The position numbers were made by a program, and so were the translations under genes. From Escherichia coli (lineage in GTDB: Bacteria; Pseudomonadota; Gammaproteobacteria; Enterobacterales; Enterobacteriaceae): a stretch of DNA of 64,000 bases. The DNA is taken from NCBI RefSeq assembly GCF_003334785.1, contig NZ_QOWV01000008.1, one strand, 5' to 3'. The notes beneath the pieces are model-generated. The model did no database searches. It was not told where the DNA came from and saw only the letters and a list, made by a program, of their open reading frames with translations. Within the stretch, counting starts at the first letter, position 1; each line of letters opens with the position of its first letter. Positions 18,246 to 56,784 of this stretch are shown one piece after another.

Positions 18246-19493
18246 TTAGCCAAATTTAGGTAACACGTTAAAGACGTTGCCGAACCAGCACAAAATCACG
18301 GTTATACCAAAGAGAATGACAATCGCCGGAATAAGATTGCCGCCCCAGACCGTGAACATCTGATTGGGAAACTTCTTGCGAGCTTTGATTGCAAGCACTG
18401 CGGGAATAATGACCGCCCAGATGGTGGCGCACAGCCCGGCACCGCCGATCCCGTAAATAAAGCCGTTCGGGAAGATCAGATACAACAACGCAGGTGGCAG
18501 GAAGGTTAACAGCACGGTTTTGAAACGCCCGCCGTGGGAGTTATCAATCTTAAACAGGTCCGCCAGATAATCGAACAACCCCAGCGTGACACCAAAGAAC
18601 GAACTGGCAACAGCTAAGTTAGAGAACACCAGCAGGCAAAACTCGATAATGCCGTGCTGTTTGGTGCCGAGGAACGATTTCACCAGCGAATCAACGTTGC
18701 CGCCTGAGGAGATAATCGCCTTAAAGCTTTCTCGCGGAATATTCCCCATGGTGCAATAGAGCCAGAAGAGATAAATCACCAGCGCCAGCAGCGAACCAAA
18801 TACCACGCTTTTGATTAACTTATCTTTGCGTTTTCCATAGCAAATAATCAGGCTGGGAATATTGCCGTGGAAACCAAATGACGCCAGACACACCGGCAAA
18901 GCCATAAAGATATACGGGAAGTAAGACGTTCCCGCAGTGGAGCTGGTGGCGTCGCGCAGAATGGAGTAATCGACCTGGAAGAAAAAAGAACCAAACACGA
19001 TCACAAAGGAGATAATCTTCAGCCCGAGGAACAATGAGGTAATACGACTGGCGGCTAACGAACTTAACCACAATACGCTGGCAACGAAAGTGGCTGTGCA
19101 GATCCCGACAATACGTGGATTAGCGTGATAACCCAAATTCATTGATATCGTTTCACTAATGATCGCACCATTAGCAGAGATATAGGCATAAGTGAGGATA
19201 TAGAGAACGAAGGCAACGGTAATACCGCTGATAATGTTCCAGGTGTTACCGATTAAATCTTTGGTGATGGTGTTAAAACTGGAGCCGACGGGATAATTTA
19301 AATTTGCTTCTAATAACAATAACCCGGAATGAAGCATTGAAAACCAGGCAATGATAAGGATAAAGGCACCCCAGAAAAACCAGGCACCGGCAAGATCAAC
19401 AGGTAAAGCAAACATACCTCCACCAATTACTGTACCTGCTATAACCATAACACCCCAAAATGCAGAGTGCTTTTTTTCAGCTTGATCAGTCAT
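18246..19493 (-). CDS. tnaB: Low-affinity tryptophan permease TnaB
   Basis: 415-aa ORF, aromatic amino acid permease. Confidence 0.97.
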   Translation of the reverse strand: MTDQAEKKHSAFWGVMVIAGTVIGGGMFALPVDLAGAWFFWGAFILIIAWFSMLHSGLLLLEANLNYPVGSSFNTITKDLIGNTWNIISGITVAFVLYILTYAYISANGAIISETISMNLGYHANPRIVGICTATFVASVLWLSSLAASRITSLFLGLKIISFVIVFGSFFFQVDYSILRDATSSTAGTSYFPYIFMALPVCLASFGFHGNIPSLIICYGKRKDKLIKSVVFGSLLALVIYLFWLYCTMGNIPRESFKAIISSGGNVDSLVKSFLGTKQHGIIEFCLLVFSNLAVASSFFGVTLGLFDYLADLFKIDNSHGGRFKTVLLTFLPPALLYLIFPNGFIYGIGGAGLCATIWAVIIPAVLAIKARKKFPNQMFTVWGGNLIPAIVILFGITVILCWFGNVFNVLPKFG

Positions 19494-19583: not shown

Positions 19584-20999
19584 TTAAACTTCTTTAAGTT
19601 TTGCGGTGAAGTGACGCAATACTTTCGGTTCGTACGTAAAGGTTAATCCTTTAATATTCGCCGCGTTCTCTTTCACATGTTTAAAGGCTTCAATAATGAA
19701 GTCCATATGTGTTTGAGTATATGTTGCGCGCGGAATGGTTAAACGCAGCAGTTCAGCCGGGCATGGCAGTTGTTTACCGGTTTTCGGATCGCGGCCTAAC
19801 AGGAAAGAGCCAATTTCTACCGCACGGATACCGGCGACTTTATACAGCTCGCAGGCCAGCGCCTGTGCCGGGAACTGGTCTGCCGGGATATGCGGCAACA
19901 GTTTACCGGCATCAACGAATGCCGCGTGACCGCCCGCCTGCTGGCAGACAACGCCAATCTCTTCCAGACCATCGACCAGATACTGTACCTGCGCGATACG
20001 ATAAGCCAGCCAGTCGAGATTCATGCCGTCATACAGACCTACCGCCAGACGCTCCATCGCGCCGCCTTCCAGGCCGCCATATGTCGGGAAGCCTTCCTGC
20101 ACCACGCAAAGGGTTCTGCACTCGGTGTACACATCAAAGAAGCTGTCGTCTTTCATGCACAGCAGGCCGCCCATCGGCACCATCGCATCTTTCTTGGCGG
20201 ACATCGCCAGCATATCGGCATATTTGTAGGTTTCGCGGGTGATCTGCTCGATGGTCCAGTCTTTGTATTCTGCTTCACGCTGCTTGATGAAATAGGCGTT
20301 TTCAGCAAAGCGCGCGGAGTCCATTACCACCGGAATATCGTATTTCTTCGCGATGCTGTACATCGCTTTTAAGTTTGCCAGTGAAACCGGCTGACCACCT
20401 GCAGAGTTACTGGTGATGGTTGCAACGATATACGGCACGTTATTCGGACCAACTTCTTCAATACCGCGTTCTAATCCCTCAAGGTCAAAGTTGCCTTTAA
20501 AGTCGTAACGCACGCCCGTATCGAAGGCTTCTTTGATATAGACGTTACGCACGGTACAGCCGTTGATCTGGCTATGGCCCTGCGTGGTATCAAAGAAATA
20601 GTTAGAGAACGCCACCATTTTGCTGCGATCCAGGCCTTTTTCCTGCTCGCGTTTTTTAATCAGTACCGGAATATAGATTTGCTCTGCGCCACGGCCCTGG
20701 TGAGTCGGAATGGTGTATTGATAACCAAAGATATTTTTCACTGACTCGGCTAACGCATAGTAGCTACGACTGCCGCTGTAGGCTTCGTCGCCGCGCATCA
20801 TCGCAGCCTGCATGCTCTGCGTCACCGCCCCGGTGCCGCTGTCGGTCAGTAAATCGATAAACACATCTTCGCTATCCAGCAGGAACGGGTTCATACCGGA
20901 TTTAATAATTGCCTCTTCACGATAAGCGCGAGTGGTACGTTTTACTGGCTCAATAACACGAATGCGGAACGGTTCAGGGAGATGTTTAAAGTTTTCCAT
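19584..20999 (-). CDS. tnaA: Tryptophanase TnaA
   Basis: 471 aa from [19 protein letters not shown]; the ORF track adds 5 upstream codons. Confidence 0.97.
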
Positions 21000-21219
21000 T
21001 ACATAATCCTTCATTTATTTTAATTACAGTGATCCCTGTGAATATTACATCTGCTATACCGATTAATTCGCCAGATATATATGCAAGCACCATCATTTAC
21101 TAAAACAAGTAAATAAACGAGAGATGACCTTTGCAAAAGGCAAAATTAAGATATAGCAAACAAATAGATCACATTGAATCTAATCGGTTTGGCTCTGGTG
21201 ATGGCTACAGAAGGGCAAA

Positions 21220-21294
21220 TCAAGGGCGGTGATCGACAATTTTGTTGTCAATATTGAACCATTTTGAGGTCACACATATATGTAAGATATTCAT
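21220..21294 (-). CDS. tnaC: tna operon leader peptide TnaC (24 aa)
   Basis: Reverse complement translates exactly MNILHICVTSKWFNIDNKIVDHRP*; about 220 nt upstream of tnaA. Confidence 0.95.
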   Translation of the reverse strand: MNILHICVTSKWFNIDNKIVDHRP

Positions 21295-21536
21295 AATGCA
21301 CTTATCCTCGCAAGACACGAGGCTACATTATTACACTCAGAGTTTTTGTCTATTCTGAAATTGTTTAAATGTGAATCGAATCACAATCGTTCGGGGAGCA
21401 ATATTAAATGCTTTTTTTAAAGATTATAAATTACGTAAGAATTTTAATGTTTAAAAAAAGGGTTGAGGAATAACAGGAGTGGTAACAATGAAGCGAAGCC
21501 GCATCTGACAGTCAGAATGCGGCTTCGTAAGCGCGG

Positions 21537-22901
21537 TTACTTACCAATACAGAAGCTGGAGAAAATCCGCCCCAGCAGGTCGTCTGAAGTAAATTCCCCG
21601 GTGATTTCGCTTAAGTTCTGCTGTGCCAGACGCAACTCTTCCGCCAGCAGTTCACCTGCCCAGGCTCCCAACAGTTGCGCTTTGCCCTGTTGTAGATGTT
21701 CCGCTGCCTGTTCCAGCGCCTGTAGGTGGCGACGACGCGCCAGGAAGCCGCCTTCCATGTTGGTGTCAAAGCCCATGCTCTGTTTGAGATGGTTACGCAG
21801 CACGTCCACGCCTTCACCAGTCCTTGCCGAGAGACGAATTAACGCGTGACCGTTCACTTCACTCATTCCCAGCGTTTCGCCGGTGATATCGGCTTTATTG
21901 CGCACCACGGTGATCGGCAGTTTCGCTGGCAGACGGGCAATAAATTCCGGCCAGATCTCTGCCGGATCCACGGCGTCTGTTGTGGTGCCATCGACCATAA
22001 ACAGCACGCGGTCGGCCTGTTCAATTTCCTGCCACGCGCGCTCGATACCAATACGTTCTACTTCGTCACTGGCTTCACGTAGCCCGGCGGTATCGATGAT
22101 ATGCAGCGGCATTCCGTCAATGTGGATATGCTCACGCAGCACGTCACGCGTAGTTCCGGCGATATCGGTTACGATTGCCGCTTCACGCCCCGCCAGCGCG
22201 TTTAACAGGCTCGATTTACCGGCGTTAGGACGTCCGGCAATCACCACTTTCATCCCTTCGCGCAACAAACTACCCTGACGTGCTTCAGCACGCACTGCAT
22301 CAAGATCGGCAATAACGTCATTGAGCTGGGCTTCAATTTTTCCGTCGGAGAGGAAATCGATCTCTTCATCGGGGAAATCAATTGCCGCTTCGACGTAAAT
22401 GCGCAAGTGGGTGAGGGCTTCTACCAGATGATTAACCCGTGCGGAGAATGCGCCTTGCAGCGAGTTAAGTGCCGAACGGGCCGCCTGTTCCGAACTGGCG
22501 TCGATAAGATCGGCAATCGCCTCGGCCTGGGCTAAGTCAAGTTTATCGTTAAGAAACGCGCGTTCGGAAAACTCACCAGGGCGAGCAATCCGCAGGCCGG
22601 GAATGGTCAGAATGCGTTTTAACAGCAGGTCGAGGATCACCGGACCGCCATGACCTTGCAGTTCCAGCACATCTTCGCCGGTGAACGAGTTCGGGCCAGG
22701 GAACCATAGCGCAATCCCCTGATCGAGCACGCTGCCGTCGGCGTCTTTAAACGGAAGATAATCGGCGTAGCGCGGCTTAGGCAGTTTACCCAGCACGGTT
22801 TCGGCAACTTCACGGGCTTTGAAGCCGGAGATGCGCAGGATGCCAACGCCGCCACGTCCCGGAGGCGTGGCCTGGGCTACGATAGTGTCATTATCGCTCA
22901 T
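21537..22901 (-). CDS. mnmE: tRNA modification GTPase MnmE (TrmE)
   Basis: 454-aa ORF with G-domain motifs GRPNAGKSS and DTAG, C-terminal CIGK. Confidence 0.97.
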
Positions 22902-34568: not shown

Positions 34569-35258
34569 ATGACTCTCAATAAAACCGATCGCATTGTCAT
34601 TACGCTGGGTAAACAGATCGTTCACGGCAAATACGTGCCAGGCTCGCCGCTTCCGGCTGAGGCGGAACTCTGTGAGGAGTTTGCAACCTCGCGCAACATC
34701 ATCCGTGAGGTGTTCCGTTCGCTGATGGCGAAGCGGCTGATTGAAATGAAACGTTATCGCGGGGCGTTTGTGGCACCGCGTAACCAGTGGAATTACCTCG
34801 ACACTGACGTACTGCAATGGGTGCTGGAAAATGACTACGACCCACGGCTTATCAGTGCCATGAGCGAAGTGCGAAATCTGGTGGAACCGGCGATTGCCCG
34901 TTGGGCAGCAGAGCGCGCGACTTCCAGCGATCTGGCGCAGATTGAATCGGCGCTGAACGAGATGATTGCCAACAATCAGGACCGCGAAGCGTTTAACGAA
35001 GCGGATATTCGCTACCACGAGGCGGTGCTGCAGTCGGTGCATAACCCGGTGTTACAGCAACTTAGCATTGCGATCAGTTCGCTGCAGCGGGCGGTTTTTG
35101 AACGAACCTGGATGGGCGATGAGGCCAACATGCCGCAAACGCTCCAGGAACATAAGGCGCTGTTCGATGCGATACGACATCAGGACGGCGATGCGGCAGA
35201 GCAGGCGGCGCTTACCATGATCGCCAGCTCGACACGAAGGTTAAAGGAAATCACATGA
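34569..35258 (+). CDS. dgoR: GntR/FadR-family repressor DgoR
   Basis: 229-aa ORF with N-terminal HTH. Confidence 0.95.
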   Translation: MTLNKTDRIVITLGKQIVHGKYVPGSPLPAEAELCEEFATSRNIIREVFRSLMAKRLIEMKRYRGAFVAPRNQWNYLDTDVLQWVLENDYDPRLISAMSEVRNLVEPAIARWAAERATSSDLAQIESALNEMIANNQDREAFNEADIRYHEAVLQSVHNPVLQQLSIAISSLQRAVFERTWMGDEANMPQTLQEHKALFDAIRHQDGDAAEQAALTMIASSTRRLKEIT

Positions 35259-36132
35259 CAGCTCGCTACATCGCAATTGACTGGGGATCGACCAATCTGC
35301 GCGCCTGGCTTTATCAGGGCGACCACTGCCTGGAGAGCAGGCAATCAGAAGCAGGCGTCACGCGCCTGAACGGAAAATCTCCGGCTGCGGTGTTAGCAGA
35401 AGTCACGACCGACTGGCGTGAAGAGAAAACGCCAGTGGTAATGGCAGGAATGGTTGGCAGCAACGTCGGCTGGAAAGTTGCACCGTATTTATCTGTTCCT
35501 GCCTGTTTTTCGTCTATTGGCGAACAATTAACGTCAGTTGGCGACAATATCTGGATTATTCCCGGATTATGTGTCTCTCATGACGATACCACAATGTGAT
35601 GCGCGGCGAAGAAACACAATTGATCGGCGCGCGAGCTCTGGCTCCTTCCTCTCTTTATGTCATGCCCGGAACCCATTGCAAATGGGTGCAGGCCGATAGC
35701 CAGCAAATCAACGATTTTCGCACCGTGATGACCGGTGAATTACATCATTTACTGTTAAATCACTCATTGATTGGCGCAGGTTTGCCGCCGCAGGAAAACT
35801 CTGCCGATGCCTTCACAGCTGGCCTTGAGCGTGGTCTTAATACGCCCGCCATATTGCCGCAGCTTTTTGAAGTTCGCGCCTCGCATGTGCTGGGAACACT
35901 TCCCCGCGAACAGGTCAGCGAATTTCTCTCTGGTTTGTTGATTGGCGCAGAGGTCGCCAGTATGCGCGACTATGTGGCCCATCAACACGCCATCACCCTT
36001 GTCGCCGGAACATCGCTGACCGCGCGCTACCAGCAAGCCTTTCAGGCGATGGGTTGCGACGTGACGGCGGTGGCGGGCGACACGGCATTTCAGGCTGGTA
36101 TAAGGAGCATCGCTCATGCAGTGGCAAACTAA
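35255..36132 (+). pseudogene. dgoK: 2-dehydro-3-deoxygalactonokinase dgoK, split by an apparent -1 frameshift near 35585-35598
   Basis: Two overlapping ORFs (35255..35599 and 35596..36132) in different frames together span 878 nt; one added base would give a single 292-codon ORF. Confidence 0.7.
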
Positions 36133-49611: not shown

Positions 49612-51564
49612 ATGAATTCGTTACAAATCTTGAGTTTTGTCGGTTTTACGCTGCTGGTGGCGGTGATCACCTGGTGGAAGGTCCGCAAAACAGATACCGG
49701 ATCGCAACAAGGCTATTTTCTTGCCGGACGTTCACTAAAAGCGCCGGTTATTGCCGCTTCGTTAATGCTAACCAACCTTTCCACGGAACAACTGGTCGGC
49801 CTTTCCGGGCAGGCCTACAAAAGCGGCATGTCGGTGATGGGCTGGGAAGTGACTTCAGCGGTGACGCTGATCTTCCTCGCGCTAATCTTTTTACCGCGCT
49901 ATCTGAAGCGCGGCATTGCCACCATCCCCGATTTTCTGGAGGAACGTTATGATAAAACGACGCGTATTATCATCGACTTCTGCTTCCTAATTGCCACCGG
50001 CGTCTGCTTTCTGCCGATTGTTCTCTACTCCGGCGCGTTGGCGCTCAACAGCCTGTTTCACGTCGGGGAATCGCTACAGATTTCTCACGGTGCGGCTATC
50101 TGGCTACTGGTAATTTTGCTTGGTCTGGCGGGAATTTTGTATGCGGTGATCGGCGGACTGCGCGCAATGGCAGTGGCGGACTCCATCAACGGTATTGGGC
50201 TGGTTATCGGCGGGTTGATGGTGCCGGTATTTGGCCTGATCGCGATGGGCAAGGGCAGCTTTATGCAGGGCATTGAGCAACTCACCACCGTTCACGCCGA
50301 GAAATTAAACTCAATCGGTGGCCCGACCGATCCCTTGCCGATTGGCGCGGCATTTACCGGTTTGATTCTGGTGAACACCTTTTACTGGTGTACAAATCAG
50401 GGCATCGTGCAACGCACGCTGGCGTCAAAAAGCCTGGCGGAAGGGCAAAAGGGGGCGCTGTTAACGGCGGTGCTGAAAATGCTCGACCCGCTGGTACTGG
50501 TGCTGCCAGGGTTGATTGCGTTTCATCTGTATCAGGATTTACCGAAAGCCGACATGGCCTACCCGACGCTGGTCAATAACGTTCTGCCAGTGCCAATGGT
50601 GGGTTTCTTCGGCGCGGTGTTATTTGGTGCGGTGATCAGTACCTTCAACGGCTTTCTGAATAGCGCCAGTACGTTATTCAGTATGGGTATTTACCGTCGC
50701 ATCATTAACCAGAATGCCGAGCCGCAGCAGCTGGTCACCGTCGGGCGCAAATTTGGTTTCTTTATCGCTATCGTTTCGGTGCTGGTCGCGCCGTGGATCG
50801 CCAACGCGCCGCAGGGGCTGTATAGCTGGATGAAACAGCTCAACGGCATTTACAACGTGCCGCTGGTTACCATCATCATTATGGGCTTTTTCTTCCCGCG
50901 CATCCCGGCGCTGGCGGCAAAAGTAGCGATGGGGATTGGCATAATCAGCTACATCACCATCAACTATCTGGTGAAGTTCGACTTCCATTTCCTCTATGTG
51001 CTGGCCTGTACGTTCTGCATCAACGTGGTCGTGATGCTGGTGATCGGTTTTATCAAACCGCGCGCCACGCCGTTCACCTTCAAAGATGCGTTTGCGGTGG
51101 ACATGAAACCGTGGAAAAACGTCAAGATCGCGTCAATTGGCATCCTGTTCGCGATGATTGGCGTCTATGCCGGGCTGGCTGAATTCGGCGGCTACGGTAC
51201 GCGCTGGTTAGCGATGATCAGTTATTTCATTGCCGCCGTAGTGATTGTCTACCTGATTTTTGACAGCTGGCGGCGGAAGGTATTCGCTTTAATTCCGCCT
51301 ACACCTGTTCACCGGTTTGTACGCCTGCACGGGCCGGACTATTTACCGGTATCTACGCTAACCAGTCCGGCCCGTGGACCAACAACGTCGCGCCAGGCAA
51401 AAACATCTCCACTATGGGGCGCTACTTTAAGGATGCCGGCTATCACACCTGTTACATCGGCAAATGGCATCTCGACGGTCATGACTATTTCGGCACTGGC
51501 GAGTGTCCGCCGGAGTGGGACGCTGATTACTGGTTCGATGGGGCGAACTATCTTAGCGAACTGA
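49612..51564 (+). CDS. yidK: SSS-family Na+/solute symporter YidK-like; abnormal 3' end that reads into yidJ out of frame
   Basis: Transporter-like sequence to about 51262, then 94 low-complexity codons overlapping the sulfatase gene. Confidence 0.75.
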   Translation: MNSLQILSFVGFTLLVAVITWWKVRKTDTGSQQGYFLAGRSLKAPVIAASLMLTNLSTEQLVGLSGQAYKSGMSVMGWEVTSAVTLIFLALIFLPRYLKRGIATIPDFLEERYDKTTRIIIDFCFLIATGVCFLPIVLYSGALALNSLFHVGESLQISHGAAIWLLVILLGLAGILYAVIGGLRAMAVADSINGIGLVIGGLMVPVFGLIAMGKGSFMQGIEQLTTVHAEKLNSIGGPTDPLPIGAAFTGLILVNTFYWCTNQGIVQRTLASKSLAEGQKGALLTAVLKMLDPLVLVLPGLIAFHLYQDLPKADMAYPTLVNNVLPVPMVGFFGAVLFGAVISTFNGFLNSASTLFSMGIYRRIINQNAEPQQLVTVGRKFGFFIAIVSVLVAPWIANAPQGLYSWMKQLNGIYNVPLVTIIIMGFFFPRIPALAAKVAMGIGIISYITINYLVKFDFHFLYVLACTFCINVVVMLVIGFIKPRATPFTFKDAFAVDMKPWKNVKIASIGILFAMIGVYAGLAEFGGYGTRWLAMISYFIAAVVIVYLIFDSWRRKVFALIPPTPVHRFVRLHGPDYLPVSTLTSPARGPTTSRQAKTSPLWGATLRMPAITPVTSANGISTVMTISALASVRRSGTLITGSMGRTILAN

Positions 51565-52658
51565 CGGAAAAAGAGATTAGCCTGTGGCGCAATGGCCTAA
51601 ACAGCGTCGAAGATTTACAGGCGAACCATATCGACGAAACCTTCACCTGGGCGCATCGTATCAGCAATCGGGCGGTGGATTTTCTGCAACAGCCTGCGCG
51701 CGCAGACGAGCCTTTCCTGATGGTGGTTTCGTATGATGAGCCGCATCACCCGTTCACCTGTCCGGTGGAGTATTTAGAGAAATACGCTGATTTTTACTAC
51801 GAGCTGGGCGAGAAAGCACAGGATGACCTGGCTAACAAACCGGAACATCACCGCTTATGGGCGCAGGCGATGCCATCGCCAGTCGGTGATGACGGGCTTT
51901 ATCACCATCCGCTCTATTTTGCCTGTAATGACTTTGTTGATGACCAAATCGGACGGGTCATCAATGCCTTAACGCCAGAGCAACGTGAAAATACGTGGGT
52001 TATTTATACCTCCGATCACGGCGAAATGATGGGCGCACATAAGCTGATCAGTAAAGGGGCGGCGATGTATGACGACATCACCCGCATTCCGCTGATCATC
52101 CGTTCGCCGCAAGGGGAGCGGCGACAGGTCGATACGCCAGTCAGTCATATCGATTTACTGCCGACAATGATGGCGCTGGCAGATATTGAAAAACCAGAGA
52201 TTCTGCCGGGGGAAAATATCCTTGCCGTGAAAGAGCCACGCGGCGTGATGGTGGAATTTAACCGCTACGAGATTGAGCATGACAGCTTTGGCGGTTTTAT
52301 TCCGGTGCGTTGCTGGGTGACGGATGACTTTAAACTGGTACTCAACCTCTTCACCAGTGATGAACTTTACGATCGCCGTAATGACCCAAATGAAATGCAT
52401 AACCTGATCGATGATATCCGTTTTGCAGACGTTCGCAGCAAAATGCATGACGCCTTATTGGATTACATGGACAAAATTCGCGATCCGTTCCGCAGTTACC
52501 AATGGAGTCTGCGTCCGTGGCGTAAAGATGCACGGCCGCGCTGGATGGGGGCGTTTCGTCCACGTCCACAAGATGGCTATTCGCCAGTTGTACGCGACTA
52601 TGACACCGGCCTACCGACACAAGGGGTGAAGGTGGAGGAGAAAAAACAGAAGTTCTGA
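51264..52658 (+). pseudogene. yidJ: Cys-type sulfatase YidJ-like lacking its N-terminal ~30-35 residues
   Basis: Sulfatase homology starts at 51264 right after an in-frame TGA; C-x-P-x-R motif CTPAR at 51318-51332; first in-frame ATG only at 51414. Confidence 0.6.
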
Positions 52659-56736: not shown

Positions 56737-56784
56737 CGTTTAAGCATCTCCCGGAAAGTCGGCCCAGAAGAAAAGGACTGGAGC

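Follow-up and report, generated by a model that had tools for sequence, protein, structure and literature searches.

The tna leader in the window

The tryptophanase operon was found on the minus strand of the window, that is, the stretch of 64,000 nucleotides of Escherichia coli DNA analysed here. The leader gene tnaC (21220..21294) is followed on the same strand by tnaA, encoding the 471-aa tryptophanase (19584..20999; TIGR02617, 1010 bits, cut-off 825.8), and tnaB, encoding the 415-aa low-affinity tryptophan permease (18246..19493; NF007235, 923 bits, cut-off 497). Upstream of tnaC, and likewise on the minus strand, lies mnmE (22901..21537), which appears in the ORF list as a 454-aa GTPase. 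The coordinates of tnaC, tnaA and tnaB map one-to-one onto the K-12 annotation. TnaA starts with MENFKHL; the longest ORF in this frame would yield a protein of 476 aa (21014..19584, beginning MKDYVMENF), and in the K-12 annotation the gene begins at the ATG further downstream, at 20999. The earlier note, written from the letters of this DNA, had placed the leader at 21015-21294 and left the strand unstated. Its right edge holds, whereas its left edge is 15 nt short: the feature resides on the minus strand and the leader ends at 21000. The left edge derives from the longest-ORF start of the tnaA frame, which is provided by the in-frame ATG at 21014.

Translation of the window showed that tnaC consists of 24 codons plus TGA and encodes MNILHICVTSKWFNIDNKIVDHRP. 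According to the codon table, there is only one Trp codon (TGG, codon 12, 21261..21259), accompanied by Asp16 (GAC, 21249..21247), Ile19 (ATT, 21240..21238) and Pro24 (CCT, 21225..21223), the latter being directly followed by TGA as codon 25 (21222..21220). The claim of a 24-codon tnaC with a single Trp codon and a terminal Pro was thereby borne out (21294..21220), and the two codons whose mutation had been named as speaking against it, Trp12 and Pro24, are both intact, reading TGG and CCT. All four residues known to be critical for TnaC function, i.e. W12, D16, I19 and P24 (PMC3902921, PMC10941005), are present in the correct spacing. A Shine-Dalgarno sequence, GAGGA (21305..21309, minus strand), can be read 10 nt before the ATG.

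TnaC matched the NCBIfam equivalog TIGR02616 with 44.3 bits (cut-off 23.55; profile positions 1-22 of 22) and the Pfam family PF08053 (Tna_leader) with E = 1.1e-19 (model positions 1-24 of 24). It is identical in 24/24 residues to chain 7 of PDB entry 6i0y, a stalled ribosome in which this chain is designated 'Tryptophanase operon leader peptide', and it also matches the peptide chain in PDB entry 4uy8. The gene had been described as not visible in the ORF track, which is true under the length threshold only: when ORFs are listed from 20 aa upwards, a 32-aa GTG-started ORF (21318..21220) that contains tnaC does appear. We rejected this GTG-extended form of the gene because the family models start at the ATG, because the extension undergoes a C-to-F change among alleles and because it begins at or before the presumed transcript start. 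Several further ORFs of 20-40 aa occur in the leader region on both strands.

The spacer separating tnaC from tnaA measures exactly 220 nt (21219..21000), in agreement with the leader of about 220 nt that had been noted before. Directly after the tnaC stop lies a putative rut (Rho utilisation) region, UUUGCCCUUCUGUAGCCAUCACCAGAGCCAAACCGAUUAGAUUCA (21175..21219, minus strand), whose bounds we estimated from composition. These 45 nt contain 14 C versus 7 G residues and nine YC dinucleotides, the highest value among the 45-nt segments of the spacer, and the overlapping 40-nt segment 21230..21191 comprises 40% C and 17.5% G. In the predicted minimum-free-energy fold, most of the putative rut tract is unpaired. 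In both composition and position, this C-rich, G-poor and poorly structured tract adjoining the stop codon of the upstream ORF (uORF) is what is expected of a rut site. Just past it, at 21174..21169 (minus strand), a minimal start-stop ATGTGA was observed.

A boxA-like motif, CGCCCTTGA (21220..21228, minus strand), overlaps codons 23-24 and the stop codon of tnaC. With two matches in the window as compared to 4.5 expected, this degenerate motif is too short for statistics and indistinguishable from chance. The assignment of a putative boxA to the end of tnaC reportedly goes back to Konan and Yanofsky 2000.

The distal part of the spacer (21000..21174, minus strand) is associated in the literature with RNA polymerase pausing, Rho termination and Spot42 pairing. 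Near its end, the tnaA Shine-Dalgarno sequence AAGGA (21011..21007, minus strand) is located 7 nt before the tnaA ATG at 20999. In a terminator scan, nothing resembling an intrinsic terminator turned up on the minus strand of the spacer, and both terminator-like matches were inside the mnmE end. The fold of the 220-nt spacer did not differ significantly in stability from shuffled sequences (z = -1.48), and on these grounds we rejected an RNA-structure-based switch in the spacer. Lack of a minus-strand intrinsic terminator together with lack of significant structure is in keeping with a factor-dependent, peptide-sensed attenuator and argues against an RNA-structure-based one. When the region 20500..21800 was scanned against Rfam at a permissive E-value, only a 12-nt chance match inside mnmE and no family for the tnaC leader was obtained, as one would expect of a sensor that works through a peptide; this outcome has no bearing on novelty.

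Upstream of the tna promoter, a CRP palindrome of the type TGTGA-N6-TCACA, TGTGATTCGATTCACA (21370..21385, minus strand), was detected, which is the sole perfect match to this pattern in the 64-kb window, as compared to 0.04 expected by chance. We take transcription to start at ~21318, presuming the '319-nt leader' before tnaA that is attributed to work of the Yanofsky laboratory (20999 + 319 = 21318). The CRP palindrome would then lie ~60 bp upstream of the start, and the putative tna promoter region would extend over 21318..21360 (minus strand). A scan for consensus sigma-70 promoters gave no minus-strand match at the tna leader, and its one plus-strand match inside tnaC is fewer than expected by chance; failure to match the consensus is not unusual for an activator-dependent promoter. 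Initiation of tna transcription is known to be under CRP/catabolite control (PMC5748587, PMC10941005). As a refinement of the earlier description, the regulatory unit extends upstream of tnaC to the CRP-dependent promoter.

Identity with K-12 and variation within the species

Comparison of the region from the mnmE end to the tnaA start (20980..21540, minus strand) with K-12 MG1655 (NC_000913.3) revealed identity in 561/561 columns; that is, the comparison with the characterised tnaC that had been proposed as a check came out without a single difference. At the matching site, the K-12 annotation lists tnaC as b3707 ('tnaAB operon leader peptide'), tnaA as b3708 and tnaB as b3709, with mnmE upstream. 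Judged by its sequence, the feature in the window is the textbook E. coli tnaC leader and in fact the type sequence itself: it is real, ordinary and already known.

The similarity extends far beyond the operon. By blastn, the window is the reverse complement of MG1655 positions ~3,845,569..3,909,728 with 99.98% identity over 64 kb, and it spans pstC-pstA-pstB-phoU, bgl, tna, mnmE-yidC-rnpA-rpmH, dnaA-dnaN-recF-gyrB, dgo, ibpAB, ilvBN and uhp. It differs from MG1655 by 11 SNPs, a 1-bp deletion and a deletion of ~158 bp. Two of the SNPs concern the tna operon. The one at 20862 is synonymous (tnaA codon 46), leaving the TnaA protein equal to that of K-12, and the one at 19090 causes the only substitution in TnaB, I135T. 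The other SNPs reside at 56747 (ilvB-ivbL intergenic), 50238 (yidK), 47229 (glvC), 36353 (dgoA), 34260 (yidX), 32535 (yidB), 11507 (cbrC), 7760 (bglH) and 51264 (deletion junction). The host strain is evidently a close K-12 relative and not MG1655 itself.

The ~158-bp deletion maps to window positions 51260..51274 (K-12 ~3858303..3858460), between two GCCGCCAG direct repeats, removes the yidK end together with the yidJ start and is common to natural isolates. An in-frame yidK-yidJ fusion was considered and rejected, as the remnants form separate ORFs (49612..51564 and 51414..52658) and RefSeq treats them as pseudogenes in the natural isolate LR-64-2. This isolate is 100% identical to and colinear with the window over 18.5 kb, and its yidK and yidJ are annotated as partial pseudogenes. 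The 1-bp deletion at 35588 splits dgoK, encoding 2-dehydro-3-deoxygalactonokinase (plus strand, 35255..36132), into the ORFs 35255..35599 and 35596..36132. The dgoK gene of LR-64-2 carries the RefSeq label 'frameshifted'. Due to this frameshift, the strain may be unable to use D-galactonate.

To place the leader within the species, we compared it with 5426 complete E. coli genomes. A 551-bp query matched 5420 of them, with tnaC annotated under the match, and RefSeq annotates tnaC at the matching site in thousands of genomes. The 120-nt core consisting of tnaC and rut was present in 5400/5426 genomes, the identity being at least 95% in each of these bar one, and absent from 26. In 790 of the 5420 matching genomes, less than 80% of the 551-bp query was covered, with the breakpoint just upstream of the CRP site. 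The sequences thus compared indicate that the leader behaves from the CRP site onward as a conserved module, while the DNA upstream appears to be replaceable. In KOr021 and O157:H7, what lies upstream of the CRP site bears no relation to the mnmE-tnaC intergenic region of K-12. Insertions were also observed. In STEC388 (NZ_CP041425.1), IS1A interrupts tnaC after ~36 nt, the tnaA gene is lacking and tnaB is present in truncated form, and this disruption of tna would make the strain a natural indole-negative genotype. Strain E70 carries an IS1 within the mnmE-tnaC-tnaA region.

The window was further aligned with four divergent alleles, i.e. those of S42, O26:H11 FWSEC0001, KOr021 and AZ162, all of which share the TnaC protein accession WP_001364348.1. 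Within tnaC, seven sites vary across the five alleles, comprising six synonymous changes and one stop change (TGA to TAA), with no amino-acid change. In a control ORF of 36 aa (21096..20986), which overlaps the tnaA start, the changes among the same five alleles are mostly nonsynonymous, and this ORF was rejected as coding for that reason. Synonymous-only variation in tnaC is what selection acting on the peptide sequence would be expected to leave behind. As regards the surrounding elements, one of 45 sites varies in the rut core, one of 23 in the tnaC 5' UTR and 13 of 175 (7.4%) in the distal spacer, and in the CRP site a single flanking base is all that differs. The most variable part of the leader is the promoter stretch including the -10 area, with 9/43 variable sites. 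In the tna -10 area (21325..21344, minus strand), the window and K-12 read AAAAACTCTGAGTGTAATAATGTAGCC as compared to AAA(T/A)TTCTTGAGTATTATACTGTAGCC in the four other alleles, which amounts to ~8 differences.

The stop change deserves separate mention. In S42 and O26:H11 FWSEC0001, tnaC encodes the same peptide and ends with TAA instead of TGA (at the position corresponding to 21222..21220 of the window), and linked to this stop is a G-to-A change located 5 nt into the rut tract. With at least 99% identity, the S42-type 120-nt allele occurs in ~1788 of the 5400 genomes, as compared to 1946 for the K-12 type of the window; the TAA stop itself was read directly in two genomes. TnaC is reportedly a preferential inhibitor of RF2, and UAA is a stop codon that RF1 reads as well. 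It follows that basal level or inducibility may not be the same for the TGA and TAA alleles. E. coli seems to carry two major tnaC alleles for one peptide, distinguished by TGA versus TAA. By extension, one could speculate that in much of the species the TAA form gives indole production another basal level or another Trp sensitivity, and that the conserved distal spacer holds further signals, a proposal which we consider rather unlikely as it stands.

Mechanism and alternative explanations

Trp-dependent stalling and Rho-dependent attenuation have been demonstrated on the K-12 tnaC-tnaA leader (PMC8429421, PMC12360218, PMC3902921, PMC10941005). For the exact TnaC peptide present in the window, L-Trp-dependent stalling at Pro24/UGA was shown by toeprinting and cryo-EM (PMC8429421, PMC3902921, PMC10941005), and Rho termination before tnaA was reported for the identical sequence (PMC8429421, PMC12360218, PMC10941005). 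The location of the rut site directly after the tnaC stop and the role of RF2 at the UGA stop codon have also been described (PMC10941005). Because the leader in the window is identical to this characterised sequence, we infer that stalling and Rho dependence apply here as well.

In this scenario, transcription would begin at the CRP-cAMP-dependent promoter ~25 nt upstream of tnaC, and a ribosome would translate tnaC. At low concentrations of free Trp, RF2 would recognise UGA and cleave TnaC-tRNAPro, and the ribosome would depart. Its departure would expose the C-rich rut site starting right after the stop codon, allowing Rho to load, to catch polymerase paused in the 220-nt spacer and to terminate transcription before tnaA. 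When free Trp is high, the nascent TnaC peptide, with W12, D16 and I19 in the exit tunnel and P24 at the peptidyl-transferase centre, would form a pocket for L-Trp together with the ribosome. Bound Trp would block RF2-mediated release, and the ribosome would stall while its P site holds Pro24 and its A site UGA. With a footprint reaching ~12-15 nt past the stop, as estimated from general toeprint geometry, the stalled ribosome would cover the rut start and exclude Rho, leading to readthrough into tnaA and tnaB. The required sequence elements are all present in the window, correctly arranged and conserved; where transcription starts, where rut begins and ends and how far the ribosome footprint reaches are what we infer.

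Taken together, the locus is almost certainly the E. coli tnaCAB operon leader, in which Trp-dependent stalling would block Rho termination. Support for this reading, which was already that of the earlier note, comes from nucleotide identity with the K-12 leader, the critical residues, the UGA stop, the C-rich tract, the presence of tnaA and tnaB downstream and the family models. We found no evidence contradicting it.

Alternative explanations have to be weighed against this reading. tnaC comprises only 24 codons, and dozens of equally short ORFs exist in the region by chance, so that it might simply be a chance ORF in a long 5' UTR, untranslated and without a sensing role. The probability of this is virtually nil: the ORF is identical to the experimentally characterised gene, it matches the equivalog and Pfam models over the whole peptide, solved structures show TnaC on the ribosome, and the GAGGA Shine-Dalgarno sequence is placed 10 nt upstream. 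Moreover, the ratio of six synonymous to zero nonsynonymous changes contrasts with the mostly nonsynonymous changes in the 36-aa control ORF, and published start-codon and missense mutants of the exact sequence refute the idea of an idle ORF (PMC3902921, PMC10941005). It is likewise exceedingly improbable that the leader operates as a classical trp-type attenuator, in which a ribosome at the Trp codon reports charged tRNA-Trp and thereby selects between an antiterminator and an intrinsic-terminator hairpin. A leader peptide with a Trp codon ahead of a tryptophan-related operon would suit such a device, but tnaC contains one Trp codon and no tandem pair, the spacer offers neither a U-tract terminator hairpin on the minus strand nor a significant fold (z = -1.48) nor an Rfam structured-leader match, and the logic is opposite, as the tna operon is induced rather than repressed by Trp. 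In addition, the signal is free L-Trp, for which Trp-tRNA in the A site is no substitute (PMC3902921).

A different emphasis would assign the spacer mainly to post-transcriptional control of tnaA, exerted by the sRNAs Spot42 and GlmY/GlmZ or at translation initiation, with attenuation being secondary. Indeed, Spot42 represses via the tnaC-tnaA intergenic region, as seen with a ParaBAD-driven tnaA'-'lacZ fusion (PMC5748587), and conservation of the distal spacer is high, only 7.4% of its sites being variable between the divergent alleles. However, the effect of Spot42 was ~4-fold under overexpression (PMC5748587), whereas a Trp analogue caused ~60-fold induction via TnaC (PMC3902921), and the predicted duplex between Spot42 and the spacer was no better than for shuffles when a crude method was used. 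We therefore regard a mainly post-transcriptional role of the spacer as very improbable; such regulation would come on top of Trp-dependent control of Rho termination rather than take its place.

Significance and relation to known systems

The tnaC leader serves as a model case both of metabolite sensing by a nascent peptide and of Rho-dependent attenuation. It controls the production of indole and thereby impinges on signalling, biofilm formation and virulence gene expression in E. coli. The tnaC leader in the window holds no novelty and raises no new question; its intactness implies only that the strain should have normal Trp-inducible, catabolite-repressed tryptophanase expression. As a 24-codon gene that is missed by ORF-length filters and was nonetheless recognised in the earlier note, tnaC makes a useful positive control.

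The closest relative is the tnaCAB leader of E. coli K-12 itself, which has the same peptide, UGA stop, 220-nt spacer and CRP site. The gene order mnmE-tnaC-tnaA-tnaB-mdtL is also the same, and the differences between the two operons are confined to the synonymous SNP in tnaA and the I135T exchange in TnaB, the leader being free of any. In Proteus vulgaris, tnaC likewise encodes a Trp-sensing arrest peptide ahead of tnaA, followed by a Rho-dependent spacer, and W20, D24 and P32 of the P. vulgaris peptide display the same relative spacing as W12, D16 and P24 in E. coli (PMC3902921). However, P. vulgaris TnaC is longer, and the step blocked by Trp is peptidyl transfer to Lys33, i.e. elongation, and not the release by RF2 at a stop codon following Pro (PMC3902921). 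The tnaC gene of the window has the E. coli arrangement, with the stop codon directly after Pro.

A comparable strategy is used by the speFL/speF leader, where an arrest peptide encoded by a uORF senses a small molecule and controls Rho-dependent attenuation, as is the case for tnaC (PMC12360218). speFL differs in its peptide, its ligand ornithine and its operon, and has no sequence relationship to tnaC; it is a mechanistic analogue only. Finally, trpL resembles tnaC in that a short leader peptide couples downstream transcription to tryptophan status. Regulation by trpL involves tandem Trp codons, sensing of charged tRNA and alternative RNA hairpins with an intrinsic terminator. In contrast, tnaC has a single Trp codon and a spacer without a minus-strand terminator hairpin or significant structure, and tryptophan brings about induction of its operon rather than repression.
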